From the NCBI GenBank assembly GCA_964510655.1, contig CAZEAY010000003.1, positions 18,924 to 82,923 of the forward strand: a stretch of 64,000 bases of DNA, read 5' to 3'. The position numbers and the translations under genes are program-made. The notes under the pieces are model-generated. The model ran no database searches and was not told the origin of the DNA. It was given only the letters and a program-made list of their open reading frames with translations. The DNA is from an uncultured Candidatus Saccharibacteria bacterium (lineage in GTDB: Bacteria > Patescibacteriota > Minisyncoccia > Phycocordibacterales > XYD1-FULL-46-19). This document shows positions 4,909-63,433 of this stretch, piece after piece (the stretch's first letter is position 1; the number at the start of each line of letters is the position of its first letter).

Positions 4909-6363
4909 TTAGTCTTTGCGCATAAAAAGAGGAGCTGACAACTCTTTCATTTTAATTGCCTCCTGAATCTTTTTAGCCGTAACTGGCATAATGGGTTCCA
5001 AAGCCACAGCAATTCTCCAAAGAGACCCCACTAAATAAGCAACATGTATGCGTGCCTCTTCGGGTTTGTCTTTGTAAAGTTTAAACGGTTGAGTATTTTG
5101 GATGTATAAATCAGCTTCCCCGATTTGTTTCCAAATAAAATCAGCGGCTTTACTTATTTCATAATTATTTAAATTTTCACAATATTCTTGATAAAAATCA
5201 TCAGCCAGCCACTCACGAGACGATTTTAACTCACTGGTAGGTTCTGCAACTTCATAACTCTGATACATTTTTATAATCCGACTAGTCAAATTCCCTAACC
5301 CATTTGCCAGATTAGCATTATAAGATTCCTTAAATTTATCCTCAGTAAAATCACCGTCTTCAAAAGGAGTGATTTCGCGAGCCAAATAATAGCGCAAAGC
5401 TTCCGCCCCATAGTCCTTGACGACCGCGAGCGGATCCACAACATTACCAAGGCTTTTAGACATCTTCTGCCCACCAGAAGTAATAAAACCATGGATAATA
5501 ATTTGTTTAGAGGGTTCTAAGCCAGCTGACAATAACATGGCCTGCCACATCGCTGACTGCTGCCTCAGATTATCTTTACCAGCAAACTGAATTCCCGGCC
5601 ACCACTTACTAAAATTAGACTCATTTTCTGGCCAACCAAGAGCCGAGATATAATTTACCAAAGCATCAAACCAGACGTACATCACCTGCTCACTATCGCC
5701 AGGAACCTCTATCCCCCAAGGCATCTTACTCTTCAAACGAGAAATGCTAAAATCTTGTAGACCGCCAGCTACGAAATTTTTAATTTCATTCAGACGACCA
5801 GCCGGTAAAACAAAAGCTGGGGTTTCATACAAATTCAAAAGGGCTTGTTGGTATTTAGAGAAACGAAAAAAATAATTTTCTTCATCAATCATTTCAATCT
5901 CCATATTAGGATGAAGTGGACATCTGCCATCAGCTAATTCTGAATCGGTTTTTTCGAGTTCACAACCAGCACAATATTTTACCTTATAAGCCTTTTTGTA
6001 GATATCGCCAGACGCTAAACAGCGTGCCCAAAATTCCTGGGCCGCCTTTTTATGATGCTCATCGGTTGTCCGAATAAAATTAAAATTCGGATTGTCGACA
6101 TCAACAGCCAAAACACCAGCCAGCTCTTTGAATTTAGCCGAGTACTCATCAACATAAGTTTGAACTTCTATCCCCCGGCTTTCGGCAATACGTAAAATCT
6201 TAACCCCATGTTCATCAGTACCGGTGTTAAAAAAAACTTCTTGTCCCAAGAGTCTTCGATATCGAGCGATAATATCGGCCTGAATGATCTCTAAAGCAAA
6301 ACCGATATGAGGATCGGCATTTACGTAAGGTAACGTCGTCGTGAAGTAAAATTGATCAGCCAT
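4909..6363 (-). CDS. metG: methionyl-tRNA synthetase
   Basis: PYVNADPHIGFA (HIGH) and KMSKSLGN motifs. Start taken at MADQF (ATG 6361-6363), just after the stop of the upstream gene. Confidence 0.9.
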   Translation of the reverse strand: MADQFYFTTTLPYVNADPHIGFALEIIQADIIARYRRLLGQEVFFNTGTDEHGVKILRIAESRGIEVQTYVDEYSAKFKELAGVLAVDVDNPNFNFIRTTDEHHKKAAQEFWARCLASGDIYKKAYKVKYCAGCELEKTDSELADGRCPLHPNMEIEMIDEENYFFRFSKYQQALLNLYETPAFVLPAGRLNEIKNFVAGGLQDFSISRLKSKMPWGIEVPGDSEQVMYVWFDALVNYISALGWPENESNFSKWWPGIQFAGKDNLRQQSAMWQAMLLSAGLEPSKQIIIHGFITSGGQKMSKSLGNVVDPLAVVKDYGAEALRYYLAREITPFEDGDFTEDKFKESYNANLANGLGNLTSRIIKMYQSYEVAEPTSELKSSREWLADDFYQEYCENLNNYEISKAADFIWKQIGEADLYIQNTQPFKLYKDKPEEARIHVAYLVGSLWRIAVALEPIMPVTAKKIQEAIKMKELSAPLFMRKD

Positions 6364-28604: not shown

Positions 28605-29162
28605 TTAATAATGGGGATTCTCTTCTTTTACTCCCTTCTTGGTATTGGCAATTCGAGCCAAGGCATACAAGACTGATGACAAACGATTAAGATAAGACAG
28701 GGCCTCAGGTGAAACTACCAAATTCTCAGTCTGAGCTCTTACTACCGCCCGCTCGGTTCGTCTCGCAATTGTTCGAACGACATCAAAAAGAGAAGAGAGT
28801 TCAGTCCCACCGGGGATAATAAAACTCTTAATTGGTGGAATTTGCTTTTCAACACTATCAGTGACTAGCTCCAAAAAAGTTACCCGGGAAGCGGAAATTT
28901 TTTTATCAGCTCCCGCCAATTCAGCCTGGATAATAAAAAGATCCTGCTGAATTTCTGCCACTAAATCAGAAACAAGATTATCTTTATCGCCGACGAGAAA
29001 GGAAACTTCGTCAGTCCGACTTTTAGCTTTGCACAAACCCAAAAAAGAGTTGACTTCATCCATCGAACCAAGAGCTTCGGTCACCAAGGAGCTTTTAACA
29101 ATCCGGTTAGCACAACCAAAGGTCTTAGTTGTTCCGTCATCCCCTTTTCTCGTATAAAGCAT
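28605..29162 (-). CDS. ATP:cob(I)alamin adenosyltransferase, PduO/MMAB type
   Basis: YTRKGDDGTT N-terminus and a helical-bundle length of ~185 aa. Start at MLYTRKG (ATG 29160-29162). Confidence 0.7.
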   Translation of the reverse strand: MLYTRKGDDGTTKTFGCANRIVKSSLVTEALGSMDEVNSFLGLCKAKSRTDEVSFLVGDKDNLVSDLVAEIQQDLFIIQAELAGADKKISASRVTFLELVTDSVEKQIPPIKSFIIPGGTELSSLFDVVRTIARRTERAVVRAQTENLVVSPEALSYLNRLSSVLYALARIANTKKGVKEENPHY

Positions 29163-29224
29163 AGGGGTAATATACCATAGTCCAAAAAAAATTCCACCCA
29201 AAGTATGGATGGAGATTAGTGGGC

Positions 29225-29536
29225 TCACCGATGACGATGTTTGCCAAAGAAATCTTGTGAATAAAGATCAGGTGCAGGCACCAATCCTCGCAAGAAATCC
29301 GGCTGAGAAGTCTCGATGCGGTGGTGGGGCTGAGGAGCCACAAGAATGGCAGTCCCTTTAGGTAAAGCAGCAGCCTTGGAAGAGGCACGGAATGTTCCGA
29401 GACTGTCTGCTGGCCGGGTTCCCCAATGCCGAAAACGTACCATGTTACAGGCCTGGGCCTCAGACACCGCCTGAGCCTGACCAATAAAAACATCATTCAA
29501 GTACACCTCCCAAGTCAAAACCGGGCGCTTGGCCAT
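29225..29536 (-). CDS. GC-rich hypothetical protein (103 aa) with consensus SD and promoter
   Basis: AAGGAGG + 5 nt + ATG (29534-29536). The ORF is visibly GC-rich. No family recognised. Confidence 0.5.
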   Translation of the reverse strand: MAKRPVLTWEVYLNDVFIGQAQAVSEAQACNMVRFRHWGTRPADSLGTFRASSKAAALPKGTAILVAPQPHHRIETSQPDFLRGLVPAPDLYSQDFFGKHRHR

Positions 29537-29575
29537 GGAGACCTCCTTGGGAAAGATGACAGAATCCCTATCTGG

Positions 29576-36086: not shown

Positions 36087-36248
36087 TCCATTACATGGAC
36101 GATACAGCTTTCCCATTTGTTCAGATGGGTACATCCTCACAAATAAGGGAGAAGCTCTTCGATTCCTGTACGCAAGGTGCGCAGACACCTTGCTCGAGGT
36201 CACAAAATTAACAAAAGCCACTTTAAACAGTGGCTTTTGTTAATTTTG

Positions 36249-36320
36249 TGACCTCGACAGGAATCGAACCTGTATCGTGGGATCCGCAATCCCATATTCT
36301 ATCCGTTGAACTACGAGGCC
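36249..36320 (-). tRNA. tRNA-Arg (anticodon read as GCG)
   Basis: Acceptor GGCCTCG/CGAGGTC, D-loop AACGGATA, anticodon stem TGGGA/TCCCA with loop TTGCGGA, T-loop TTCGATT. The anticodon assignment depends on my stem choice. Confidence 0.65.
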
Positions 36321-44459: not shown

Positions 44460-46847
44460 TTATTTATCAAGCTCTCCCCAGCGATCTCCCGCTCCCCAAT
44501 TAACAGTTAGAGGAACCTTCATTTGACTGACTTTCTCCATGGCCTTCTTAATAACTGGCGAGACCTCCTCTACCACCCCCTTCTCTATCTCAAAAATAAG
44601 CTCATCATGAATCTGCAACAGGAGGTGAACTCGGTCCAGCATCTTTATTTTTTTAAGTTCGTCATTAACTTTAATAATAGCCAACTTCACAAAATCGGCT
44701 CCACTACCCTGGATAGGAGCATTCATCGCCATTCGTTCGGCACTAGCCCTGATAAAAGGTAGCCGAGATTTTAACTCCGGGAAATATCGACGGCGGCCAA
44801 ACAATGTTTCCGTATAACCAATCTTATACGCTCCGGAAATTACATTGTCAAAATATTCGCGAATTTTCGGAAAAGTAGCAAAATAATTATCATAAAATTT
44901 TTGAGCTTCTTCTCGGGTCGTATTAAGGTTCATCTTAAGAGCATTCACCCCCATCCCATAAACAATCCCAAAATTTAAAACTTTGGCTTGTCTTCGCATG
45001 TCTTTAGTCACCTCACTATCGGAAACATTAAAAACTCGAGCGGCCACGGCCGTATGAATATCTTTTTCTTCTTTAAAAATTTTAATCAAATCTTCATCAC
45101 CAGACATTTCAGCCAAAATACGCATTTCCATTTGCGAGTAATCAAAAGAAACTAACCTATGCCCTTTGTCGGCAATAAAAGCTTTACGAATTCTTTCTCC
45201 ACTTCCCTCGCGTACCGGGATATTCTGCAGATTAGGATTAGAACTAGACATTCGGCCAGTGGTTGTTCCGGCTTGATTTAAGCTGGTATGCAGGCGATCT
45301 TCCTCATCAGTCATCTTGGGGATATTATCAATATAAGTTGAGAGGAGTTTTTGATATTCGCGATATTCCAAGATTGGCGGAATAATAGGGTGTTCATCTT
45401 TCATTTTTAATAATTCCGACTCTTTGGTGCTACGAGCTCCACCGGCCGTTTTCTTTAAACCCTTAACGGAAATTTTTAGCTCATCAAAAAGTATTTCACC
45501 AAGCTGTTTAGGTGAATTGATATTAAATTCTCGACCAGCTTCGGTGTAAATCTTTTTTTCTAGTTTAGAAAGAAGTAAGTGATACTCCTTCGATAAATCA
45601 GCCAAATATTTTCGATCAATCAAGATCCCCCGTTTCTCAGCCTTATCAATAATCGGAATAAGAGGAAGTTCGATGTCGGTATAAATCTTTTCTAAGCCAA
45701 GATCTTTTAGTTGTTTTAAAATAAGTTTTTCGGCCAAAGATAAATCTTTAGTATCGGCGTAATCCAAAATGTCATCGATTGTCGGCGTTGTTTTAGAAGA
45801 ATCAATCAGCCACAAAGCAATGCCTACTCTTTTTACTTGTAAGGGGTCATACTGGGGAACCAAAGGGGTGGGTTCAATTTGATCATCAGCGGAATCCGCA
45901 AAATTAGGTAACAGGTTACGCGCCCGAGGAATCAAACTCCGAAACTCAAAAAGACTAAAAGTTTTTTCGACCTTCTTAAGGTCACAATTTTCAGTCCAAT
46001 GACTACCTGGCAAATCAAAAGTAATCGGCACATCTCGCCTAATCGTAGCCAACATTTTAGAAAATAAAGCCTCATCCTCATTATTTTTTAAAATCTCAAT
46101 CATCCGTTCTTTAATTCCTGCTTTTTTAAAAACGGCTTCATCTTTCTTTAGTTGATTGTAAATTTTTTCAATTGTCCCAAAATTAATAATTAAATCGGTG
46201 GCGGTTTTTTCTCCCACCCCTGGAACCCCAATAATATTATCTGAGGGATCTCCCCGTAAGCCCTTGTAATCTGGTAAAAATTCCGGCCCAAAACCAAAAC
46301 GACTCTCGACTTCAGATTCATTGTACAAAATAGTATCACTAATCCCCTTTTTAAGAGTATAAACCTGGACCCGCTTACCATCGATAAGTTGCATCGTATC
46401 CATATCCCCAGAAGCAATGATAATTTCCACCCCAGGAATTTTTTTTGCCTGTTCAGCAATGGTGCCAATTATGTCGTCAGCCTCAAAACCAGCCTTGTCA
46501 TAAATGGGAATATTGAAAGCGGAAAAAATTTCTCGTGACTTATCCATTTGCGCAATCAAGGCTTCATCAGTTTTTTTTCTTTGACCTTTGTAAGCATCGT
46601 AGGCCTCTTTCCTAAAAGTGGCCTCCGCCCGATCATAACAGGCGGCCATATAATCTGGATTCAGCTCGGCAATAATTTTCATCAACATGGTGGCCAAACC
46701 ATACAAACCACCAGTCGGTTGACCAGTCGAAGAAGTAAAATCTGGCAAAGCATGATAAGCCCTGTGCAAAATAGCGTGAGCATCAAATAAAACTAATTTT
46801 TTATTTTTCACTTTTCCATCTTTTGCTTTAATTGTTTTGGTGACCAT
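44460..46847 (-). CDS. polA: DNA polymerase I
   Basis: N-terminal 5'-3' exonuclease (LVLFDAHAILHRAYHA) and polymerase motifs A/B/C (DYSQMEMRILA, RRQAKVLNFGIVYG, LQIHDELIFE). Confidence 0.95.
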   Translation of the reverse strand: MVTKTIKAKDGKVKNKKLVLFDAHAILHRAYHALPDFTSSTGQPTGGLYGLATMLMKIIAELNPDYMAACYDRAEATFRKEAYDAYKGQRKKTDEALIAQMDKSREIFSAFNIPIYDKAGFEADDIIGTIAEQAKKIPGVEIIIASGDMDTMQLIDGKRVQVYTLKKGISDTILYNESEVESRFGFGPEFLPDYKGLRGDPSDNIIGVPGVGEKTATDLIINFGTIEKIYNQLKKDEAVFKKAGIKERMIEILKNNEDEALFSKMLATIRRDVPITFDLPGSHWTENCDLKKVEKTFSLFEFRSLIPRARNLLPNFADSADDQIEPTPLVPQYDPLQVKRVGIALWLIDSSKTTPTIDDILDYADTKDLSLAEKLILKQLKDLGLEKIYTDIELPLIPIIDKAEKRGILIDRKYLADLSKEYHLLLSKLEKKIYTEAGREFNINSPKQLGEILFDELKISVKGLKKTAGGARSTKESELLKMKDEHPIIPPILEYREYQKLLSTYIDNIPKMTDEEDRLHTSLNQAGTTTGRMSSSNPNLQNIPVREGSGERIRKAFIADKGHRLVSFDYSQMEMRILAEMSGDEDLIKIFKEEKDIHTAVAARVFNVSDSEVTKDMRRQAKVLNFGIVYGMGVNALKMNLNTTREEAQKFYDNYFATFPKIREYFDNVISGAYKIGYTETLFGRRRYFPELKSRLPFIRASAERMAMNAPIQGSGADFVKLAIIKVNDELKKIKMLDRVHLLLQIHDELIFEIEKGVVEEVSPVIKKAMEKVSQMKVPLTVNWGAGDRWGELDK

Positions 46848-46849
46848 GA

Positions 46850-47299
46850 TTATTTTCTTACCTCTATTCTTCTCTGACCCTCATCGACAAATTCAAAATC
46901 AATTATTTTGGTATTGGTTGGTAATATTTCACCTATCCTCTCAGGCCACTCAACAACAATTAAATTTTCCGAATTACCAACAATTTCTTCCCAACCCAAT
47001 CTAAGCATTTCTTCAGTGGAATTTAAGCGATAACAATCGATATGCACTAATTTTTTAAACTTCTGATTGGGGTCGCAAGAATATATTTTTTCGATAACAA
47101 AAGTTGGACTGGTAATCTGTTCTTTAATTCCCAATTCCTGAGCTAAAAATTGGGTAAAGGTGGTTTTACCAGAACCTAAATCCCCCTTCAAAGCCAATAC
47201 TGTAGCAAAGTCAATGTTGGGCGACAAATCCTCTAAAATTTTTTTAGCGAGGAGTGAGACTTCAGACAGATTGTAGACATTTTTAGCAGAACTTTGCAT
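46850..47299 (-). CDS. tsaE: tRNA t6A biosynthesis ATPase TsaE
   Basis: GDLGSGKTTFTQ P-loop, ~150 aa. Confidence 0.85.
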   Translation of the reverse strand: MQSSAKNVYNLSEVSLLAKKILEDLSPNIDFATVLALKGDLGSGKTTFTQFLAQELGIKEQITSPTFVIEKIYSCDPNQKFKKLVHIDCYRLNSTEEMLRLGWEEIVGNSENLIVVEWPERIGEILPTNTKIIDFEFVDEGQRRIEVRK

Positions 47300-47349: not shown

Positions 47350-47392
47350 ATACCCCGAAGCCGTAAACGACTTCGGGGTAAAACATCAATAG
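47350..47392 (-). terminator. terminator of the GC-rich lipoprotein gene
   Basis: CCCCGAAG..CTTCGGGG 8-bp stem followed on the minus strand by TATTTTTTTA. Confidence 0.55.
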
Positions 47393-47405
47393 TCAACTTT
47401 CTCAA

Positions 47406-47834
47406 CTAGAACCAGCTGCTATGCCGACGCTTGGACAGGAGGCGGGTCCAACTTTTAGCCTCCCGAGAGATGCTCTGGGCAGTCCTGAGGGCATCGCGCC
47501 CCTCCGACTGAGTCTGGCGACGCAAGGCAATCTCACGGCGAACCTCGCCGTCAAGCTCATGCTGAGTCTGGCGGCGATTCTCCCGATCATCGCGCGACCA
47601 CTCTCTGTCTGCGCGATCCATTTCGATGGCCTGACGATGTGCGTCACGGGACTGTTCCCGATAGCCAGCATACACAGCGGCCGCCTGACCCCGACGCGGA
47701 GTGGTGTTGACTGCCCAGTCAGCACCATTATCGGAAGGGACATAAACTCGGCGGGCGGTAGTCTGGGGGGCTGTAACGCACCCCGTAACCATCAACAAGA
47801 CAAAGAGAAGCAGGCAAACGACAAAATTCTTCAT
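47406..47834 (-). CDS. GC-rich lipoprotein with Arg/Asp/Glu-rich repeats (142 aa)
   Basis: Signal peptide plus lipobox LMVTG|C. The body is rich in RxQ/RDD/RExRR repeats. Very GC-rich relative to its flanks. GAGG ~9 nt before the ATG. Confidence 0.55.
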   Translation of the reverse strand: MKNFVVCLLLFVLLMVTGCVTAPQTTARRVYVPSDNGADWAVNTTPRRGQAAAVYAGYREQSRDAHRQAIEMDRADREWSRDDRENRRQTQHELDGEVRREIALRRQTQSEGRDALRTAQSISREAKSWTRLLSKRRHSSWF

Positions 47835-48153
47835 GGTAAGGTACCTCGGTAGTAAATTTTAGGGGTGATTGGATTAACCAGCCCTATTTGTATTCTTCTT
47901 CTATTATAGCACTATTCATACAAAAAGTCAAGTATCAAGACATTTCCCTAAAATAAACCTTAAAATAAGGATATTTTACTAGTGGGCTAAACCTAGACCA
48001 CTTAGAGAAGGGAGTGCTTACAAAATTATCTCGAAGCAACATTTGCAGTCTTAAATCAGCGGTTTTCCGCTTTAGTGGATGCTTTATTCCAAAGTGTAAG
48101 ATTGAGGGTAATTTTGATTTATTCGTGGTTATTGGTATTATAATATAAAGCAT

Positions 48154-48420
48154 ATGGGAAACATAAAACTAGACAAAAACTATAATTTTATCGAGGATAA
48201 AAGTGTGTATAATGATGATTTTGTCGAGGCAGTTGATTTAATATCAAAAGCACAATCAGATAAGGTTATAACTGAGACCGAAGCAAACCTGCTCTTTAAG
48301 CTTGTCTTGAAAAAGGAATTTAAAAAAGAAACAAAAAAGATTGCACCCCCTACAACACAGACTCCAGAAGTTCATTCATTCTTTATGAATATGAAATCTA
48401 AGCAAATTAAACATGCTTAA
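48154..48420 (+). CDS. hypothetical protein (88 aa)
   Basis: AT-rich ORF; no homology recognised. Confidence 0.3.
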   Translation: MGNIKLDKNYNFIEDKSVYNDDFVEAVDLISKAQSDKVITETEANLLFKLVLKKEFKKETKKIAPPTTQTPEVHSFFMNMKSKQIKHA

Positions 48421-48778
48421 TGAAGAAACAAAAGAGGTGATGGCAACTAAACATCACCCTAAAGAGGAAAATACTCAAGAGATGAGTATTTTGATGCAAA
48501 AAGTGCTTGGGTCAGATAATGGTCCTGATTTTACCAAAGAACAGGTTGACGAAATACTTTCTCAAAAGAGAGAAATTACTGGATATATCCATGACGATAA
48601 AAAAATGGATTCTTGGGATAACAAATTTTATCTAGTAATAGTTCTTGTTTTTGTGCTTCTTTTTTCTTGTTTAGTTTTATGGAAAAAGCCCGAACTATTT
48701 AACGAAGTATTAAGTTTCTTAACGGGGGCATTTGGCGGAGGATTGGGTGGCTATGGCTTAGCATCAAAAAAGAAATAA
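48413..48778 (+). CDS. hypothetical single-TM protein (121 aa)
   Basis: C-terminal TM (LVIVLVFVLLFSCLVLW) followed by a Gly-rich tail. The terminator hairpin CCGCCTTCGGGCGG T6 lies at 48787-48810. Confidence 0.35.
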   Translation: MLNEETKEVMATKHHPKEENTQEMSILMQKVLGSDNGPDFTKEQVDEILSQKREITGYIHDDKKMDSWDNKFYLVIVLVFVLLFSCLVLWKKPELFNEVLSFLTGAFGGGLGGYGLASKKK

Positions 48779-48963: not shown

Positions 48964-50658
48964 ATGCTCACCTTCGACGAAGATAAACAAAATAAACGAG
49001 TCGATGAACTTCATCTTAAAGAAGCGGAAGGGTTGGCGCAAATGTTGTCACAAAAATACCGGCTACCCTACATTGATTTAACTAAATCTTCTATCAATAC
49101 CGATGCTTTGCGCTTGGTCCCCGAAGACGAAGCACGTTCGGCTGGCATTGCCCCCTTTAAACTACTGGGACGAAATGTTGATATTGCTATTATTACTCCC
49201 AACAACCCAATGATTGCTGATATTGTACGCACTCTTCAAGAAAATAAAGGTATCACCGCCCATCTTTATCTCGCCTCTCAAAGTAGTCTCGATCACGCCT
49301 GGGAACGCTACAAAGAAGCAGGAAAAAGTACTCAAACCGACGCGGGAGTCATTCAGATTTCCGACGAAGCCATTGCTAAATACCTATCAGAATTTAAAAC
49401 AATTGAAGATGTAAAAACAACTCTAGATAAAGAGATTGAAGAAAGTTTACAAATTGGTGGTATTTCAAACTTACTAGAAGTAATTCTTTCTGGCGCTCTT
49501 TCCACCAATGCCTCCGACATCCACATCGAACCAGAAGAGACAACCATCCGTCTTCGTTATCGCTTAGATGGCGTGCTTCACGACGTCGCTGATATTGATA
49601 GTCGTCTCTTCCGTCAAATTGCGGCTCGATTGAAATTAGTTTCCGGAATGAAACTAAATATTCAACAAGCAGCCCAAGATGGACGTTTCGCCATTAAAGT
49701 AGAAGGAACAGAAATAGAAATTCGTGCCTCTATTATCCCTGGTTCCTATGGCGAATCAGTAGTTATGCGTGTTCTTAATCCAAAAAGTATCAATGTGACT
49801 TTTGATAATCTTGGAGTAGATGAACAGCTTTATAAAATATTTGCCAAGGAAATTTCCCGACCAAACGGGATGATTCTTCTCACTGGTCCTACTGGATCTG
49901 GTAAAACAACCACCCTTTATTCTTTTCTTCGTAAAGTAAATTCCACCGAGTCAAAGATTATTACTATTGAAGATCCGATTGAATATCACTTGGAGGGAAT
50001 AAACCAGACTCAAGTAAATCGAACCAAGGGCTACACTTTCCTGTCCGGCTTGCGCGCTTCCCTGCGTCAGGACCCTGACATTATCATGGTGGGAGAAATC
50101 CGTGACTCTGAAACAGCTAAAATTGCCGTAAATGCGTCTTTGACTGGGCACTTGGTCTTTTCCACTCTTCACACCAACAACGCGGCTGGAGCAATTCCAC
50201 GCCTAATTGACCTGGGGGTGAATGCAAAAATCTTGACCTCGGCTCTAACCTTACCAATCGCCCAACGTCTAGTTCGTCGCTTATGCCCTGTCTGTAAAAA
50301 AGAAGATGTTCCAACTCCTGAAGAAAAAAGTTTAATTGACAACGTGGTTACCACTATTAAGAAAAAGAAACCGGAATTGGTTCTACCACAAACAGAAAAG
50401 GTTTGGCGACCAGTCGGCTGTGAGAAATGTAATAAAACTGGTTACAAAGGCCGGGTGGGTGTCTACGAAGCAATCGTTATGGATGACGCGGTCGCTAAGG
50501 TAACAATTGAAAATCCGAGTGAAAAAGAAATCAAAATTGCTGCCATTCCTCAAGGAATTTTGGATATGCGCCAAGATGGTATTCTGAAAATTTTGACAGG
50601 AATAACAGATATGTCAGAACTAGGTCGTGTGGTTGATTTAACAGAAGAGTTTATATAA
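48964..50658 (+). CDS. pilB: type IV pilus assembly ATPase PilB (GspE family), native copy
   Basis: GspII_E N-terminal domain, Walker A LTGPTGSGKTTT, Asp and His boxes, tetracysteine CPVC...CEKC. AT-rich, no SD. Confidence 0.9.
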   Translation: MLTFDEDKQNKRVDELHLKEAEGLAQMLSQKYRLPYIDLTKSSINTDALRLVPEDEARSAGIAPFKLLGRNVDIAIITPNNPMIADIVRTLQENKGITAHLYLASQSSLDHAWERYKEAGKSTQTDAGVIQISDEAIAKYLSEFKTIEDVKTTLDKEIEESLQIGGISNLLEVILSGALSTNASDIHIEPEETTIRLRYRLDGVLHDVADIDSRLFRQIAARLKLVSGMKLNIQQAAQDGRFAIKVEGTEIEIRASIIPGSYGESVVMRVLNPKSINVTFDNLGVDEQLYKIFAKEISRPNGMILLTGPTGSGKTTTLYSFLRKVNSTESKIITIEDPIEYHLEGINQTQVNRTKGYTFLSGLRASLRQDPDIIMVGEIRDSETAKIAVNASLTGHLVFSTLHTNNAAGAIPRLIDLGVNAKILTSALTLPIAQRLVRRLCPVCKKEDVPTPEEKSLIDNVVTTIKKKKPELVLPQTEKVWRPVGCEKCNKTGYKGRVGVYEAIVMDDAVAKVTIENPSEKEIKIAAIPQGILDMRQDGILKILTGITDMSELGRVVDLTEEFI

Positions 50659-52284: not shown

Positions 52285-53916
52285 TCAAGCAATCGTCGCC
52301 CTCAAGACTTCATCCAATGAAGTTGTCCCGGCAAAAGCCTTAAGACAACCGCTCTGTCTCAGGGTTTTCATCCCCTGTTCGCAAGCGAGCTGTTTGATCG
52401 CATCTGTCGAATGACCGGCATGGATGAAAGTTTTGATTTTCTCATCGCAAACCAGGATTTCATGAATCGGGGTCACCCCCTGATATCCGTCATAACACGA
52501 CTGACAGCCCACTGGACCGCGAACTTGTTGCAAATAGTCGCCATCCTCCAAACCGAGATGTTTTACCATTTCAGTATTTGGCCGGCTAACTCTGGAACAA
52601 GCTTCGCAGAGTTTGCGAACTAATCGTTGGGCGATGATAACCTGAAGAGCATCGGCAATCATAAATCTGGGAATTCCCAAATCAACCAGACGAGAAACCG
52701 CCGACGGAGCATCGTTGGTATGCAGAGTTGAAAGGACTAGATGCCCAGTGAGAGCAGCCTGCAAAGCAACTCCAGCGGTTTCTGTATCTCGCATCTCTCC
52801 AATCATAATCACATCAGGGTTCTGCCTCAAGCAGGCCCGTAAGGAATTGGAGAAATTAAGCCCAGTTCTTTCGTTCGTCTGAGTCTGATTGATTCCCTTA
52901 ATTCGATACTCGATGGGATCCTCGATGGTGATGATCTTTTTATCACGCGTGTTCAGCTCATTAAGCAAGGCACACAACAGGGTTGTCTTGCCAGAACCCG
53001 TCGGTCCCGTCGCCAAGATCGCCCCATTAGGCTTTTGAATAAGGAGCCTTAACATTTCCACATCAGAGTCGCTCAATCCCATTTCACCCAATGTCTTTTG
53101 GGCATTCTTGGGATCAAGCAACCGAAGCGTCACCATCTCACCATATTGCGTCAAAAGAGTAGCGATCCGAATATCATAACTCTGATTACGGTATTCTACT
53201 CGAATGCTCCCATCTTGTGGATGACGACATTCTTCGATTTTCATTCCAGCCCGGCTCTTAAGGAAAGAGACCATACCGAGGAGCCAGCCCGATTTACAAG
53301 GAGGCTCAATGTCGCGCAGACACCCATCAATTCGATATCGAACCACCACACCGTCTTCCCATGGTTCGATACTGATATCTGAGGCACGCTCGCGAATTGC
53401 TCCACAAAGAATGGCCCCTACCAAGTGCTCATTCCCAACCACCTTCGGCAGAACACCTCCCTCTGGTAGGATAAGTTCTCCGGGACGCTCCCCAACAGGT
53501 GGAGGATTCTCGTTTGCTTTTACAATGACCTCCATCTGATTTCCCGCTTTGGAGTAAAACCTCTCAAGACAAATGAGAATATCTTTCTCCAAAGCGAGTA
53601 TCGGTTCGATTCCAACATCGCCAATCTCATAAGGAAGTCGATCTGTAAGCTCAAGGTTGCCCGGATCATTGGTGGCGACAGCCAAACGATTTGATTCGGA
53701 ATTGAACCTAATCGCCACGATACAATACTTCCGAGCAATCTCTTCAGGAATCATTTTGACCACAATCGGATCAAGCGATTCTGGTCTCAATTCCATTGGT
53801 TTGGGCAACAAGGATTGTTCAAAGGATGAAGAGATTGAGCCTGGATGAGCCGCATCTCCTATACGTTCCACATTCCTTGCCAATTGACCATCACCTCCAT
53901 TACCCGGTCGAGACAT
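52285..53916 (-). CDS. GspE/PilB-family secretion ATPase, GC-rich foreign-looking copy
   Basis: N-terminal GspII_E_N-like domain, ATGPTGSGKTT Walker A, and His and Asp boxes. Visibly ~50% GC. GAGGAGGG sits 7 nt before the ATG at 53914-53916. Confidence 0.85.
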   Translation of the reverse strand: MSRPGNGGDGQLARNVERIGDAAHPGSISSSFEQSLLPKPMELRPESLDPIVVKMIPEEIARKYCIVAIRFNSESNRLAVATNDPGNLELTDRLPYEIGDVGIEPILALEKDILICLERFYSKAGNQMEVIVKANENPPPVGERPGELILPEGGVLPKVVGNEHLVGAILCGAIRERASDISIEPWEDGVVVRYRIDGCLRDIEPPCKSGWLLGMVSFLKSRAGMKIEECRHPQDGSIRVEYRNQSYDIRIATLLTQYGEMVTLRLLDPKNAQKTLGEMGLSDSDVEMLRLLIQKPNGAILATGPTGSGKTTLLCALLNELNTRDKKIITIEDPIEYRIKGINQTQTNERTGLNFSNSLRACLRQNPDVIMIGEMRDTETAGVALQAALTGHLVLSTLHTNDAPSAVSRLVDLGIPRFMIADALQVIIAQRLVRKLCEACSRVSRPNTEMVKHLGLEDGDYLQQVRGPVGCQSCYDGYQGVTPIHEILVCDEKIKTFIHAGHSTDAIKQLACEQGMKTLRQSGCLKAFAGTTSLDEVLRATIA

Positions 53917-57615: not shown

Positions 57616-60111
57616 GTGCTAAGATTATTTTATATGATTAAAAACAAAAATTACCACCCAATCATCAAGGGTATTTTTATTATTTTAATTGGTTTTTTCA
57701 TCTTTTCTGGCTTTTCTGTTGTTTGGGCAATCTCTTTACCAATTCCTGATTTCAACAACTACTTTATTGACCTTAGTAAGGCTGAGCCAACCAAAATTTA
57801 TGACCGAACTGGCAAAGTAATGCTCTACAATATGAGTGGTTTGGTTCGTCGCACCCAGGTATCCCTGCCTCAAATTTCAAAATATATTAAGGCGGGTACA
57901 GTGGCAATTGAGGACGATACTTTCTACACCCATAAAGGGGTTAAACCAACCTCTATTGCTCGCGCTTTATGGGTAGATATTACTTCCGGTTCCAAAAAGC
58001 AAGGCGCTTCTACCATTACCCAACAGGTAGTCAAAAACACTCTTTTAACCAACGAAAAAACTATCACCCGTAAGATAAAAGAAATTGTTTTAGCGGTAAA
58101 AATGGAGCAAGAGATGACCAAGGACCAGATTTTGGAACTTTATCTAAACCAGATCCCCTATGGTGGAAATATGTATGGGGTAGAAGAAGCATCAAACACT
58201 TTTTTCAAAAAACATGCGAGTGAATTAACCTTAGCCGAATCGGCTTATTTAGCAGCTATTCCTCAGGCCCCAACCACCTATTCCCCCTACGGACAACATC
58301 GCGATCTCTTAGACGCTCGCAAAAATCTAGTATTAGACCGTATGGCCTCCCTTGGCTATGTCAGTAAAGAAGAGGCTGCCCGAGCAAAAAAAGACAAGGT
58401 AGTGTTTGCTCCAGTAGAATTTCACGGTATAAATGCTCCTCATTTTGTCTTCTTTGTTAAAGAATATTTAGAAGAAAAATATGGTGGAGCCACTCAAGTA
58501 GAAAAAATGGGCTTAAAAGTTACCACCACTCTTGATTATCCAACCGAACTAAAAGCTGAGGAAATTGTTAAAAAATACGGCACAGAAAATGAGAAAAACT
58601 TTAATGCTAAAAATGCTGCCTTAGTTGCCATTGACCCAAAAACTGGACAAATTTTAGCCATGGTTGGTTCCCGTGATTATTTTGACATGAAAAATGAGGG
58701 GAATTTCAATGTTGCCCTCGCTCATCGTCAACCAGGTTCCTCCTTCAAACCTTTTGTCTATGCTGCCGCCTTCAATCAAGGATACACCCCAAACACGGTA
58801 TTATTTGACCTGCCAACAGAATTTAACCCAAGTTGTCCACCTACTGACTCTACAAATAAAGCTAAGGAGTGTTATATGCCGGTTAACTATGATGCCAAGT
58901 ACCTTGGACCAATGTCTCTTCGTAATGCTCTAGCTCAATCCCGCAACATTCCTGCCGTTAAACTCCTTTATTTAGTGGGAGTAGATAATGCCCTAACAAT
59001 GGCCAAAAATATGGGTATCACTAGTTTAAAAGATAAAAACACCTACGGATTAACACTTGTTTTAGGAGGTGGAGAAGTTTCTCTTCTAGAAATGACTAGT
59101 GCTTATGGGGTTTTTGCGAATGATGGTGTTAGAGTTCCTTACACTGGAATTTTAAAAGTAGAAGATGCTAAAGGAAATGTTTTAGAGGAATACAAACAAA
59201 CCGGTGAAAGAATTTTACCAGAAAATACCGCTCGTGAAATTTCTAGTATTCTTTCTGACAACGTCGCTCGTACCCCCGCCTATGGTGCCAACTCACCACT
59301 CTACATTCCAGGACGTGATATGGCCGCCAAAACAGGTACAACCAACGATTTCCGTGACACCTGGATTCTTGGTTATACTCCAAACTTAGTCGTTGGTGCT
59401 TGGGCTGGAAACAACGACAATAGCCCAATAGCGAAAAAAGTGGCTGGTATGGTTGTGGCTCCAATGTGGGGAGCCTTCATGCGAGAAACTTTAGCTAATC
59501 TACCAAATGAAAAATTTATTCCACCCGATCCTATTGATCCAAATTTAAAACCAGTTCTACGTGGTATTTGGCAAGGAGGAATTACTAATCAAATTGGTGG
59601 ACTAGAACAAATTACCACAAACGTTCATTCTATTCTTCATTGGGTGAATAAAAACGATCCTTTGGGACCAGTTCCAAGTAACCCAGCCAATGATGGGCAG
59701 TATAAAAACTGGGAATATCCAATTAGAATTTGGGCGGCCAGCAATGGTTATACTGATTCTTCAGTTATTTCTCAACCAATTTCAAACACTGGGACAAGAA
59801 CATCAAATAGTCAGCCTATTGTCTCAATAATTAACCCCCTCCCCCAAGCCTCTTACAAGCCAACAGACAATATTAATGTTCAGTTAAATATTCGCAGTGG
59901 TGATTCACCAATCAAAAAAACTGAATTCTATGTTAATAGAACTCTAATAAACTCATCAAATAATAGTCAAACAAAATTTGATTTTGGTTTAGCTGAACTA
60001 GAAAATGTTAAAGAGACAAACGAATTAACGGTGATTGTTTATGACCAAAAAGGAAACAAGGCAGAGAATACAGTAAACTTCACCGTCGCCACCTCAACTA
60101 ATACCAACTAG
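57616..60111 (+). CDS. penicillin-binding protein 1A (transglycosylase/transpeptidase) with C-terminal extension
   Basis: GT51 motif EDDTFYTHKG, transpeptidase SSFKP...SRN...KTGT motifs, and an N-terminal TM. Confidence 0.9.
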   Translation: MLRLFYMIKNKNYHPIIKGIFIILIGFFIFSGFSVVWAISLPIPDFNNYFIDLSKAEPTKIYDRTGKVMLYNMSGLVRRTQVSLPQISKYIKAGTVAIEDDTFYTHKGVKPTSIARALWVDITSGSKKQGASTITQQVVKNTLLTNEKTITRKIKEIVLAVKMEQEMTKDQILELYLNQIPYGGNMYGVEEASNTFFKKHASELTLAESAYLAAIPQAPTTYSPYGQHRDLLDARKNLVLDRMASLGYVSKEEAARAKKDKVVFAPVEFHGINAPHFVFFVKEYLEEKYGGATQVEKMGLKVTTTLDYPTELKAEEIVKKYGTENEKNFNAKNAALVAIDPKTGQILAMVGSRDYFDMKNEGNFNVALAHRQPGSSFKPFVYAAAFNQGYTPNTVLFDLPTEFNPSCPPTDSTNKAKECYMPVNYDAKYLGPMSLRNALAQSRNIPAVKLLYLVGVDNALTMAKNMGITSLKDKNTYGLTLVLGGGEVSLLEMTSAYGVFANDGVRVPYTGILKVEDAKGNVLEEYKQTGERILPENTAREISSILSDNVARTPAYGANSPLYIPGRDMAAKTGTTNDFRDTWILGYTPNLVVGAWAGNNDNSPIAKKVAGMVVAPMWGAFMRETLANLPNEKFIPPDPIDPNLKPVLRGIWQGGITNQIGGLEQITTNVHSILHWVNKNDPLGPVPSNPANDGQYKNWEYPIRIWAASNGYTDSSVISQPISNTGTRTSNSQPIVSIINPLPQASYKPTDNINVQLNIRSGDSPIKKTEFYVNRTLINSSNNSQTKFDFGLAELENVKETNELTVIVYDQKGNKAENTVNFTVATSTNTN

Positions 60112-60151
60112 CCACATGATAAAAAACAACGACTGAATAAGTCGTTGTTTT

Positions 60152-60409
60152 TTATCTTATATCTTGTGGGGCATTCTGTTTTAAAATCTCTTTTAAATCA
60201 CGAAGTATATCCTTTTTATGAATAAAAACTTCTGATTTTAATTTAGTAGAAGTTTTTAAAAAAATAATATTATTACTTAAAGAAATATCTTTTTTTTCTA
60301 AGTTTATCTTAAAACACTTAGAAATAACTTCAATTACTGCTTCTTTTTTTAAGGAGTCAGTAGGAACAAGATTTTTATACTTAGAAAGTAGTTCCTTAAG
60401 GATAATCAT
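60152..60409 (-). CDS. small protein downstream of dnaN (DUF721/DciA-like?)
   Basis: 85 aa, 1-nt overlap with dnaN. The family assignment rests on position only. Confidence 0.3.
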   Translation of the reverse strand: MIILKELLSKYKNLVPTDSLKKEAVIEVISKCFKINLEKKDISLSNNIIFLKTSTKLKSEVFIHKKDILRDLKEILKQNAPQDIR

Positions 60410-61512
60410 TACCGATTGATTGGCATAATAATATATTGAAAGGTAGTATCTCCAATACCAACAATTAAAAGTGGTCGATTTTTTTCATTAAATTTCATCG
60501 CCACAGTATCGGAAGAAATTGACTGAAAACAATCTAGAATATACCGGGCATTAAAACTCATCTCAATATCCTCACCCTCTAATACCGCTTGTAAAGAAAT
60601 AGTATTTTCACCCACATCTTGGTTTTTAGAATTTAATTCAAAAATTTTACTTTGAGGTGAAATTTTAACATTTATTTGGTTAAATTTATCAGAAAAAATA
60701 TTAGACAATTTTAAAGCATTCATTAATTCATCCCGAGAAATAGTAACTTCTGTCTTAAATTTTTTCGGCATTATTTGTCCGTAATCTGGGAAATTACCAT
60801 CAATCACCCTTGAGGTAAAGTGAATATTGTCTGTATAAAAAGAAATTTGGTTTTTATTAGCCTCAATCTTAACTTCTTGATCAAGATTATCAAAAACCTT
60901 AATTATTTCAGCGACATTTTTAAAAGGAATAATTACCGACTGAAAATCTTTATTCTTTTCTCTAATAACCACCCTTTTTTCCGCTAAACGAAAAGAATCC
61001 GTTGCCACAAAAACTAATTCCTTATCATCTTGATAAATATAAACACTTGATATTTCTGGTTTTATATCAGACAAAGAAGCAGAATATAAAACTGACCGCA
61101 AACCAGTAACAATATCTTTTCCATTAAAAGAAAAAGAATTTCCATCTTCCACCCTTGGAATCACTGGAAAATCTTCTGCTGAATAACTTTTTATTAAAGT
61201 CGAGCTAGAACCAGTAGAAATATGAATATTTTCTTTAATTAATTCTAATTTTACTTTATCTTCTTTATTAAGATTACCTAAAAAACCACTTAAAATATTC
61301 GCACTAACAGCCACACTACCATTTTCCGTAATTTTAGCTGGTAACTCTATTTCTAAACCAACATCGAGATTTGTGGCTTTGATTACTAAAGCATTATCTT
61401 TTGCCTCTAAAAGAATTGAACTTAGAATTGGTAAAGATAGATTTTTTCCAGATACCCGCTCAGCGATACCAACAACTTCTTTTAGCTTATCTTTGATCAA
61501 TTCTAATTTCAT
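60409..61512 (-). CDS. dnaN: DNA polymerase III beta sliding clamp
   Basis: Three-domain ~367 aa protein with MKLELIKDKLKEVVGIAERV... typical of DnaN, adjacent to dnaA. Confidence 0.9.
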   Translation of the reverse strand: MKLELIKDKLKEVVGIAERVSGKNLSLPILSSILLEAKDNALVIKATNLDVGLEIELPAKITENGSVAVSANILSGFLGNLNKEDKVKLELIKENIHISTGSSSTLIKSYSAEDFPVIPRVEDGNSFSFNGKDIVTGLRSVLYSASLSDIKPEISSVYIYQDDKELVFVATDSFRLAEKRVVIREKNKDFQSVIIPFKNVAEIIKVFDNLDQEVKIEANKNQISFYTDNIHFTSRVIDGNFPDYGQIMPKKFKTEVTISRDELMNALKLSNIFSDKFNQINVKISPQSKIFELNSKNQDVGENTISLQAVLEGEDIEMSFNARYILDCFQSISSDTVAMKFNEKNRPLLIVGIGDTTFQYIIMPINR

Positions 61513-61765
61513 AGTATTAAATTTATTTTTTTTAAAAGAAGAAAAGTTATTGTTATAGTTGTTGTTGATAAGTGTACAAGTTAAATTTATCCTTATTTTA
61601 CAACTTTTATTGGGATAAATTTTATTTAATAAACTGGGGATAAGATGGGATAAATGAGTATTTTTTAATTTTTAATTTTAAGAGAGTGTTAATTTATCCT
61701 AAATTAATTAACTCCTTATCCTTAGTTTTTTAACAGATCTATCCACAAGTTATCCAGAACTAATT
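61513..61765. promoter_or_regulatory. DnaA-box cluster between dnaA and dnaN (oriC candidate)
   Basis: TATCCACAAGTTATCCAGA (61739-61760), GGGATAAGATGGGATAAATG, TTATCCTTA and TTATCCTAA in an AT-rich spacer. Confidence 0.5.
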
Positions 61766-63127
61766 TTAATTATTGTAAAGCAAGACTCTAATTTGATCTA
61801 TTTCCTGGCTAAGTAAGTCGTCACTCTTTATATCCCCTTTTATTTTTTCATAAGCGTGGATAACAGTGGTATGGTCTCTTCCTCCCATTTTTTGTCCGAT
61901 ATAAGGATAAGAAGTATTAAAATCTTCCCGTAAAATATACATAATAATTTGCCTTGGTTTAACAACTTCTTTTCTTCGGCTTTTTTCAAATAACATTTTT
62001 TCTTCAATGTTATAGAAATTGGATATTACACTTATCACTTCTTTAGTAGAGACGGTCTTTTGAGGCTTTATACTGTTCTTAATCAAGAGTTTAACCTCGG
62101 GGACTGTTAAGTTCTTGTTTTTGGCCTGTGATTGGCATATAACCGAATTTAAAGCCCCTTCTAGCTCACGAATACTGTCTTGAACAACAGAAGCTAGATA
62201 TTCTATTACTTCATCGGAGATTTGGAGGTTATTGTTTTTTACCTTAGAACGTAAAATAGCCAAACGAGACTCATAATCTGGTCTAGCCACATCAACAATC
62301 ATCCCCCCCTCAAAACGGGAGCGTAATCTTTCCTCTAGATTTTGGATATATTTTGGTGGTTTATCGGATGAAAAGATAATTTGCTTATTGTTTTCATAAA
62401 AACTATTGAATAAGTGGAAAAGTTCCTCTTGGGTTTTATCTTTGTTTGAGAAAAATTGAACATCATCCATAATAATCACATCATATTTTCGATATTTTTC
62501 CTTAAATTGCCCAACCTTATTGTTTATTACGGAATTTATGTAATCTGTAGAGAAAGTTTCAGAGGTTAAGTAGAAAATTTTCTTATTTTCATTTTGACGC
62601 TTGATATGATTGCCAATTGATTGAATTAAGTGGGTTTTACCCAAACCCGTCCCCCCATAGATGTATAGAGGGTTGTAGTTCATTCCTGGGTTCTTAACAA
62701 CCGCTTGAGCAGCGGCATAAGCAACTTCATTGAAAGGGCCAACAATAAATGATTCAAAGGTATATTTAGGATTTAAATTACTGTCCCTATTTACATATAG
62801 TTCGTTGAGGCCTAATTGATCGGTGGTGGCCATCTTAAGACTTTGTTCTTCAGCTGCTTTAGTTTTGTTTCTGTCTTCTATTTTAGAGATGGTGTACTCC
62901 AAAGCTCTTACCTCAGGAGAAGCATCTCTTAAAGCCTTAAGAATAAATTTATGATATTTGTTTAGTAACCAGTCACGAACAAAGGTGTTTGGGACACTAA
63001 GGTAGACCACCCCTTGATCTTGTTTTGAAATGAAAGTGTTTTTAAACCAGGTTCCGAAACTTGCCTTGGAAATTGTTAACTCTATCTCGGCCAGAGCCAT
63101 GTCCCAAAGTTTTTTGTTTTCTAACAT
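61766..63127 (-). CDS. dnaA: chromosomal replication initiator DnaA
   Basis: AAA+ GGTGLGKTHL, sensor motifs and the C-terminal DNA-binding domain (DHTTVIHAYEKI). Confidence 0.95.
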   Translation of the reverse strand: MLENKKLWDMALAEIELTISKASFGTWFKNTFISKQDQGVVYLSVPNTFVRDWLLNKYHKFILKALRDASPEVRALEYTISKIEDRNKTKAAEEQSLKMATTDQLGLNELYVNRDSNLNPKYTFESFIVGPFNEVAYAAAQAVVKNPGMNYNPLYIYGGTGLGKTHLIQSIGNHIKRQNENKKIFYLTSETFSTDYINSVINNKVGQFKEKYRKYDVIIMDDVQFFSNKDKTQEELFHLFNSFYENNKQIIFSSDKPPKYIQNLEERLRSRFEGGMIVDVARPDYESRLAILRSKVKNNNLQISDEVIEYLASVVQDSIRELEGALNSVICQSQAKNKNLTVPEVKLLIKNSIKPQKTVSTKEVISVISNFYNIEEKMLFEKSRRKEVVKPRQIIMYILREDFNTSYPYIGQKMGGRDHTTVIHAYEKIKGDIKSDDLLSQEIDQIRVLLYNN

Positions 63128-63433
63128 GGTATTTAAAAAAAATTATCTCAGAGTGATTAAAAGTTTCTTAATTATACGCTTGGGGATAAGTATATCAATA
63201 TTGCGGGAGTGGTGGATAAGTTGTGGATTACGGTGGATATCTCTCGCCTTATTATTTGTGGAAGACATATATTTCCTTGTTAGGAAATTATTCACTCTCA
63301 GCGCCTTCGCGCTTCCGAGGGCATCCACAAATAATAAGGCTCGTTCTTGCTGTAAAAATCCTTCTTAGGTTGCAGGCGGCTAATTTATTAGATTAACTAT
63401 TGATTTATTGGAAAAACCTGTTATACTATCCAC
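63128..63433. promoter_or_regulatory. DnaA-box cluster upstream of dnaA (oriC/dnaA promoter region)
   Basis: TGGGGATAAG, GGTGGATAAGTTGTGGATTACGGTGGATAT, CATCCACAAAT, CTATCCACATG. Confidence 0.5.

Follow-up and report, generated by a model that had tools for sequence, protein, structure and literature searches.

Small lipid-anchored proteins of the bacterial envelope have been described in several forms. Generic lipoproteins are substrates of Lgt and LspA; Braun's lipoprotein Lpp (PF04728) is small and nearly all-helical, and in Escherichia coli its gene, lpp, forms a monocistronic unit with strong promoter and terminator signals; LpoB-type lipoproteins join a lipid anchor, through a disordered linker of variable length, to a conserved C-terminal module. 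Here we describe a gene for a putative lipoprotein of 142 residues (47406..47834, minus strand) in a stretch of 64,000 nucleotides (contig CAZEAY010000003.1, positions 18,924 to 82,923; hereafter the window) from an uncultured member of the Patescibacteria. The protein resembles generic lipoproteins in its N-terminal lysine, hydrophobic core and V-T-G-C lipobox, Lpp in being a small, nearly all-helical lipoprotein whose gene stands alone, with a strong terminator and expression signals that look strong, LpoB-type lipoproteins in its three-part layout, and the ER/K single alpha-helix (SAH) in having a long, highly charged helix (44% R/K/D/E) modelled as a single rod. Its mature domain, however, belongs to no described Pfam, NCBIfam or PDB family. 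The reading we favour, with a probability of roughly 0.7, is that this is a small, lineage-restricted, monocistronic lipoprotein gene of Patescibacteria (Parcubacteria/Paceibacteria type), vertically inherited in a fixed slot between the divergent pilB and tsaE-polA, and fast-evolving. Its product is most likely a membrane-anchored, strongly basic helical protein of the envelope.

When 1.84 billion cluster representatives were scanned exhaustively with phmmer, five relatives emerged (E = 1.5e-21 to 6e-4, about 32-50% identical), the nearest known being P0002 at 50% identity, with P0003 at 38%. All five carry a signal peptide followed by Gly-Cys, and the six-member alignment has 15 invariant columns (M1, G18, C19, Y31, R48, G49, Q50, Y55, D73, D76, W79, R105, Q107, E111 and R117). 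A word-index protein search matched only the lipoprotein itself, and a Joint Genome Institute (JGI) metagenome scan with the single protein gave no relatives. Pfam, NCBIfam, PDB sequence profiles and Foldseek against the PDB yielded no significant match, and in the literature we found nothing on this lipoprotein family or on lipoprotein processing in Patescibacteria.

The open reading frame (ORF) is present exactly as the original prediction had it, and so are its lipoprotein features. The N-terminus, MKNFVVCLLLFVLLMVTGC, matches a PROSITE-style (PS51257-type) rule, run as a regular expression, that calls for a positive n-region, an uncharged h-region and [LVI][ASTVI][GAS]C with the cysteine at residues 15-35; the corresponding elements are Lys2, a hydrophobic core and the lipobox V-T-G-C ending in Cys19. 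Four of the six family members pass strictly; the two deviants have a cysteine at -3 (P0003) or lack an early Lys or Arg (P0006). Gly18 and Cys19 are invariant in 6/6 sequences, five of the six have K/R at position 2, and [GAS]C is also present in the positional analogues of at least 12 other loci. A genuine lipoprotein-type gene is supported by this sequence evidence, and from the motif Cys19 is predicted to be lipidated. The NCBI gene call begins at Met15, removing the signal peptide and thereby concealing the envelope location of the protein. Judged from the sequence, Met1 is the better start, since it has a Shine-Dalgarno (SD) site where Met15 has none and since M1 is invariant in the family alignment.

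The gene carries the sequence signals of a self-contained, monocistronic transcription unit (Table 1). A promoter-like site, recognised by consensus match alone, lies about 70 nt 5' of the ATG in DNA of 0.32-0.35 GC content. The GAGG SD that the original prediction assigned to the gene was found, as was the hairpin terminator, which is stronger than first described and stands between the gene and tsaE. The RRQTQ repeat, one of the charged repeats listed there, is real at the DNA level, with copies at 47508 and 47562. In the genome of P0005 (L082, 8588..8606), the lipoprotein gene runs 19 nt into the start of tsaE and is probably co-transcribed with it; set beside the terminator in the window, this overlap indicates that the expression wiring of the slot gene is not conserved.

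Loci anchored on PolA place the host in the Patescibacteria, Parcubacteria/Paceibacteria type; among species representatives, PolA identity reaches 64% at best. Genomic context was readable for four relatives: P0005 (locus L082), P0004 (L083/84), P0003 (L086) and P0006 (L087). In 4/4, the lipoprotein gene occupies the same slot, with a divergent pilB on one side and tsaE on the other, and polA comes after tsaE wherever the contig reaches that far. Relative to the window, PilB is 79-92% identical in these loci and PolA 65-80%, against 32-41% for the lipoprotein; in L083, a PilB that is 92% identical accompanies a lipoprotein at 32%. The conserved slot together with the low lipoprotein identity indicates a vertically inherited gene that evolves much faster than its neighbours. 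A more distant locus, L004, from a Vogelbacteria metagenome-assembled genome (MAG) with PilB 64% identical, also has a lipoprotein in this slot; the protein is collinear with that of the window from the signal peptide to ISREA..W (30% over 132 aa, pairwise E = 2e-6). The match is not borne out by profile methods: hhalign aligned the signal peptide only and a mature-domain hidden Markov model (HMM) missed the protein. We consider the L004 lipoprotein a probable divergent orthologue.

The composition of the gene is extreme for the window, as the original prediction had remarked in putting it at about 60% GC. The best 430-bp stretch (47354-47783) has a GC content of 0.60, compared with a window mean of 0.389 (standard deviation 0.041) and a next-highest value of 0.51, which places it about 5 standard deviations out. 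GC content runs from 0.32-0.35 upstream through 0.59 in the ORF to 0.28 in the 3' untranslated region. For the ORF as a whole it is about 0.594-0.596, with 0.64, 0.51 and 0.63 at codon positions 1, 2 and 3. When the amino-acid sequence was recoded in the codon usage of the window, the expected GC content was 0.498, 11 points above background, compared with 0.596 observed; about half of the GC excess is thus due to amino-acid content (Arg, Ala and Gly, with almost no Lys). The remaining half comes from synonymous codon choice, which is biased inside the ORF only. GC at third codon positions (GC3) is 0.63, compared with 0.37 expected from window codon usage (z = 6.9 relative to long genes, z = 5.3 relative to those for ribosomal proteins). 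A takes up only 0.06 of third positions, compared with 0.24-0.31 in tsaE, polA and pilB. Codons ending in A are avoided (CAA 0/9; TTA, CTA, TCA, GTA, GGA, CCA and ATA all 0; CGA plus AGA 2/23), T-ending codons are still common, and the shift goes to G- and C-ending codons.

The original prediction took this composition for the mark of a foreign gene inserted beside tsaE, that is, a recent acquisition from a GC-rich donor. In its favour are the GC content of 0.60 in a window of 0.39, the GC3 of 0.63 against 0.33, codon usage that is atypical even beside ribosomal-protein genes, and the gene's own promoter and terminator. Strongly atypical GC and codon usage is also what the gene has in common with genomic islands, from which it differs in its conserved position, its lack of mobility signatures, and an anomaly that is bounded by the ORF and common to most orthologues. 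A foreign origin is largely refuted by synteny: looking for the gene in sister genomes, we found it present in L082, L083/84, L086 and L087, filling the identical slot in all four informative contexts, and the sole known relatives all belong to the same candidate phyla radiation (CPR) clade. A tblastn search of phage and plasmid collections found no relatives of the lipoprotein. No target-site direct or inverted repeats flank the gene, where only short repeats at chance level occur; no mobility gene was found adjoining it, and the nearest tRNA is about 6.7 kb away. The GC shift ends exactly at the ends of the ORF, and the excess recurs across 20-35% PolA divergence, over which a foreign signature should have decayed. 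We therefore regard acquisition from outside as highly improbable; the high GC content is not a sign of an outside source, and of the original reading the lipoprotein stands while "foreign" and "inserted" do not. What is specific to the window, as judged by comparing spacers, is the AT-rich stretch with two ORFs on the pilB side. The distance from pilB to the lipoprotein start is 1129 bp in the window and 317-630 bp in the relatives, and the ORFs at 48154..48778 have a counterpart in no relative's spacer, being carried only by the identical Logan contig L001. Neither spacer ORF (88 aa and 121 aa) matched a family; the 121-aa one has a C-terminal hydrophobic segment and a Gly-rich tail.

The synonymous bias recurs in most orthologues and slot genes. 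GC3 lies above that of polA in 10/10 slot lipoproteins, by a mean of +0.27, and the depletion of A at third positions also occurs in L083, L087, L004 and L005. Relative to ORFs with a lipobox elsewhere in the loci (n = 9), in which the GC3 excess is +0.09, the slot genes show +0.23 (n = 12). Translational optimisation of the ribosomal type is insufficient as a cause, given that the direction of the bias correlates weakly with that of ribosomal genes (rho 0.36, p = 0.02) and the score akin to a codon adaptation index (CAI) lies below the window median. A target of a diversity-generating retroelement (DGR) was also considered and rejected: within the 64-kb window, no 60-nt segment has a second copy, even with A mismatches allowed. 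Candidate causes are a constraint at the mRNA level, biased gene conversion within a surface-protein locus that recombines, and allele replacement from GC-richer relatives.

Taken as an account of the gene itself, the last of these would have an ancestral slot filled by an allele from an unsampled, GC-richer member of the clade, brought in by homologous recombination anchored in the pilB and tsaE flanks, with the high GC3 explained by that import. The clade spans 39-49% genomic GC, and its GC-richest known member, L082, has a gene-wide GC3 (0.52-0.66) similar to the 0.63 of the window allele. AT-rich hosts show a large excess, and the GC-rich hosts L082 and L086 one of about zero; the at least 14 sequence-unrelated lipoprotein clusters that occupy the slot across Parcubacteria (see below) are compatible with frequent replacement. 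However, no donor is apparent, the nearest known allele being only 50% identical, and the third-position profile (A 0.06, C 0.31, G 0.31, T 0.31) is unlike that of L082 genes. The excess is positive in every one of the ten slot lipoproteins compared with polA, so that donors would always need to have been GC-richer, and the non-coding flanks are normally AT-rich. We consider replacement in place unlikely, and prefer a resident gene that diverged where it stands.

A sharply edged GC island within an AT-rich genome, on which three long ORFs overlap, might also be read as a structured non-coding RNA whose ORFs are only by-products of GC richness. The overlapping ORFs, which the original prediction had reported on both strands, are real: 47421..47852 on the plus strand (143 aa) and 47402..47743 on the minus strand (113 aa) accompany the lipoprotein frame. 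Compared with dinucleotide shuffles, the island also folds with z scores of -2.4 on the sense strand and -3.1 on the antisense strand. Nevertheless, Rfam at gathering thresholds reported only tRNAs elsewhere in the window; a permissive Rfam search of the island gave only sub-threshold NsiR1 and anti-hemB hits (E about 0.03), all of them on the terminator hairpin itself, and ARAGORN found no tmRNA. The coding region is not unusually folded against synonymous shuffles (z = -0.5), and conservation is seen at the protein level, with an invariant lipobox. In codon alignments with three orthologues, differences fall mostly at position 3 (for example, 86 versus 52 and 44), and 36 of the 64 identical residues use differing codons. 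This excess at position 3, together with the differing codons, indicates purifying selection on the lipoprotein reading frame, and no larger gene in another frame includes it. The antisense ORF that spans the full length was open in 2000 of 2000 synonymous-codon shuffles and is rejected as a functional gene, being an automatic by-product of the protein sequence. On this evidence, an RNA gene is refuted for practical purposes, and we think that reading almost certainly wrong; a protein-coding gene is what the island contains.

An AlphaFold2 model built on the six-sequence alignment (mean predicted local distance difference test [pLDDT] score 75.9; predicted template modelling [pTM] score 0.39) suggests how the protein may be organised. 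The signal peptide is modelled as a helix at residues 2-18. Residues 20-49 have low confidence (pLDDT <50 at 20-34 and 36-44) and would form a tether; its length varies in the family, by up to about 60 extra residues in P0005, and R48, G49 and Q50 are invariant at its end. A short helix at 50-56 covers the conserved RRGQaa-Y-gY motif, and one unbroken helix is predicted from 63 to 141, mostly with pLDDT >90 (block means 79-97). This helix is amphipathic, its hydrophobic periodicity peaking at 3.5-3.6 residues. The mature protein is 19% Arg and 2% Lys, with a net charge of +7 and an isoelectric point (pI) of 10.9, and the orthologues are similar; Arg/(Arg+Lys) is 0.92, whereas the long ORFs of the window have a median of 0.33 and reach 0.61 at most. 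Differences from ER/K SAHs are that charge pairs are not enriched, Lys is nearly absent, and a hydrophobic/aromatic stripe is conserved in the family. Unlike in LpoB-type lipoproteins, the module is modelled as a single helix and not as a globular domain, and we found no relationship in sequence or fold; a class A penicillin-binding protein gene is present in the window at 57616..60111 and does not adjoin the lipoprotein gene. Spy/CpxP/ZraP proteins (LTXXQ) share with it only the general character of small, basic, helical envelope proteins, with no Pfam or NCBIfam match at E <= 1.

Lpp invites comparison: the protein might be a very abundant, trimeric coiled-coil tether that fixes how far the membrane lies from the wall. 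It is likewise a small lipoprotein modelled almost wholly as one long helix, and its gene is monocistronic, with a strong terminator and a promoter close to consensus. The hydrophobic stripe at I121, A125, W128 and L132, short and spaced 4-3-4, points the same way. Against this, none of the six members matched Pfam LPP at E <= 1, and residues 121-132 are the only such stripe, there being no continuous heptad core in any register. The C-termini (SSWF, RRR, LKR, LGH, RRY and SKH) share no terminal Lys for linkage to peptidoglycan, and codon adaptation to the ribosomal-protein set is low. The protein further differs from Lpp in its flexible tether of about 30-80 residues and in being Arg-rich and basic; moreover, the host probably has no outer membrane, Patescibacteria being generally considered, to our knowledge, to lack one. 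A role of the Lpp kind is thus rather unlikely.

Under the reading that we favour, of a basic helical envelope lipoprotein, the precursor would be exported by Sec, lipidated on Cys19 and cleaved, leaving the mature protein anchored on the outer face of the cytoplasmic membrane. A tether of about 30 residues would bear the short RRGQaa-Y-gY element and a basic amphipathic helix of about 80 residues (about 12 nm). The helix would most plausibly bind anionic polymers electrostatically, whether wall or teichoic-type polymers, DNA, or the surface of a partner cell, and the protein would then serve in the envelope as a spacer or an adhesive while under pressure to diversify. Gene anatomy, conservation and synteny were observed; export, lipidation, abundance and ligand are predictions. 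The nucleic-acid or surface-binding and host-interaction roles that the original prediction suggested are compatible with the composition of the mature protein.

A more specific role would be that of a surface receptor for nucleic acids, working with the type IV pilus machinery in DNA uptake. The mature domain is predicted to be extracytoplasmic, is strongly basic and prefers Arg; the divergent arrangement with pilB is conserved; and CPR bacteria depend on taking up external nucleotides or DNA. However, ruvB, pilB, tsaE, polA, ruvC and yebC are neighbours in a housekeeping block that is itself conserved, and lying next to pilB therefore says little about function. No known DNA-binding domain (HhH/ComEA) was detected in the protein, and in the window two unrelated ORFs stand between its gene and pilB. 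We therefore consider a receptor for DNA uptake very unlikely, and retain the broader reading of an envelope protein.

Several observations weigh against that broader reading or against parts of it. Experimental or homology-based functional annotation is lacking, and no lgt- or lspA-like ORF was recognised among those of the window, which were inspected by eye and not scanned against a family library for these genes. The evidence for binding of anionic polymers is charge, and that for high expression is the match of expression signals to consensus. The single straight helix is a model with a pTM of 0.39 from six sequences, and the protein could instead form a hairpin, a bundle or an oligomer; the helix has no clean continuous heptad core in any register, and opposite-charge pairs at i/i+3 and i/i+4 are not enriched (13, compared with 14.8 +/- 3.1 in shuffles). 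With respect to composition, L082 and L086, the two relatives with the highest GC content, show a GC3 excess of about zero. The CAI-like score, with ribosomal-protein genes as the standard, is 0.635 where the window median is 0.728, and an mRNA-structure test gave z = -0.5 for the window gene and modest values of -2.1 to -2.6 for three orthologues. The synonymous bias is thus left unexplained by the optimisation, mRNA-structure and DGR tests.

A survey of 80 PolA-anchored loci from Parcubacteria MAGs (L002-L081) showed that many have a small lipobox ORF directly upstream of tsaE. By BLASTP, the mature sequences of these slot lipoproteins fall into at least 14 clusters, of which the six-member window family is one. 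They are diverse in character, being E/K-rich and coiled-coil-like in L027, L042, L074 and L081 and beta-rich in L046 and L052, and most of the lipobox genes lie 8-19 GC points above their own locus. In comparisons with the window family, hhalign aligned L004 at the signal peptide only and L005 over a 28-residue charged stretch only, an unfiltered search with the mature-domain HMM recovered only the five core members, and BLASTP clustering left the other slot lipoproteins apart. On sequence comparison, these others are positional analogues and not proven homologues; either the slot gene diverges beyond recognition or it undergoes repeated replacement. In L007, the slot gene is broken by a run of N at about 4930..5040, which leaves its N-terminus masked or unassembled. 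It is tempting, if doubtful, to see in the pilB-tsaE slot of Parcubacteria-type CPR bacteria a dedicated, hypervariable surface-lipoprotein locus of at least 14 clusters with a gene- and strand-specific synonymous regime, in which A-ending codons give way to G- or C-ending ones within the bounds of the ORF. If true, this would be the mark of an undescribed mechanism, acting on the mRNA or on mutation, that is linked to the expression or diversification of episymbiont surface proteins.

Table 1. Features of the lipoprotein gene and its surroundings (positions in the window)
Feature	Position	Strand	Remarks
Lipoprotein ORF	47406..47834	-	142 aa + stop; conserved family, coding-type substitutions
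Promoter-like site TTGACT-17-TGxTATAAT (extended -10)	47931..47903	-	11/12 consensus positions
Shine-Dalgarno GAGG	47847..47844	-	9 nt before Met1 ATG
Intrinsic terminator	47380..47351	-	13-pair stem (8 G-C), 4-nt loop, then T7
Signal peptide (residues 1-18) and lipobox V-T-G-C	47778..47834	-	Cys19 codon 47778..47780
Predicted flexible tether, residues 20-49	47688..47777	-	Low model confidence; length varies in family; ends with RRGQ motif
Predicted Arg-rich amphipathic helix, residues 63-141	47412..47648	-	AlphaFold2 model; invariant D73, D76, W79, R105, Q107, E111, R117
Internal duplication CTGAGTCTGGCGrCG	47508-47522 and 47562-47576	-	54 nt / 18 codons apart; codes two RRQTQ motifs
tsaE, conserved downstream neighbour	46850..47299	-	Normal composition, GC 0.35, GC3 0.32
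polA, next after tsaE	44460..46847		Conserved neighbour
pilB-type ATPase (T2SSE/MshEN), conserved divergent upstream neighbour	48964..50658	+	
Two small AT-rich ORFs (88 aa, 121 aa), outside the lipoprotein gene	48154..48778	+	Window-specific insertion

Elsewhere in the window, a second GC-rich patch (0.51) lies at 29121..29550, with overlapping minus-strand ORFs at 29225..29536 (103 aa) and 29137..29496 (119 aa) and no Rfam match; either a further small gene of high GC content or an RNA not yet described may lie there. Beyond pilB, a 543-aa ORF at 52285..53916 on the minus strand appears by eye to be a second candidate for a GspE/PilB-like secretion or pilus ATPase, with a GC content of 0.48 and a GC3 of 0.46, compared with 0.42 and 0.34 for pilB. 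The most AT-rich part of the window (0.27-0.30 GC, 60.0-62.0 kb) holds ORFs that look by eye like dnaN (60409..61512) and dnaA (61766..63127), and 60000..63400 is probably a replication-origin region. ARAGORN reported a tRNA-Arg with anticodon GCG at 36248..36320 on the minus strand, alongside tRNA-Arg CCG and TCT. The usual bacterial tRNA-Arg anticodon is the inosine-forming ACG, and the GCG species may bear on the decoding of CGN codons in the host genome.

A sharp GC island in a CPR genome is by itself not proof of foreign DNA, and at this locus synteny overturned that reading. The avoidance of A-ending codons within the bounds of the ORF, seen in most slot occupants across genomes that differ in GC content, is a small and modest curiosity. 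The lipoprotein and its relatives make up a small family, so far unannotated, of basic helical lipoproteins in Patescibacteria, although the kind of protein is itself well known. The far faster evolution of the protein relative to its neighbours is as expected of a surface molecule exposed to hosts or phages, and makes it a reasonable candidate for studies of the envelope and of host contact in a group whose cell surface is almost uncharacterised.

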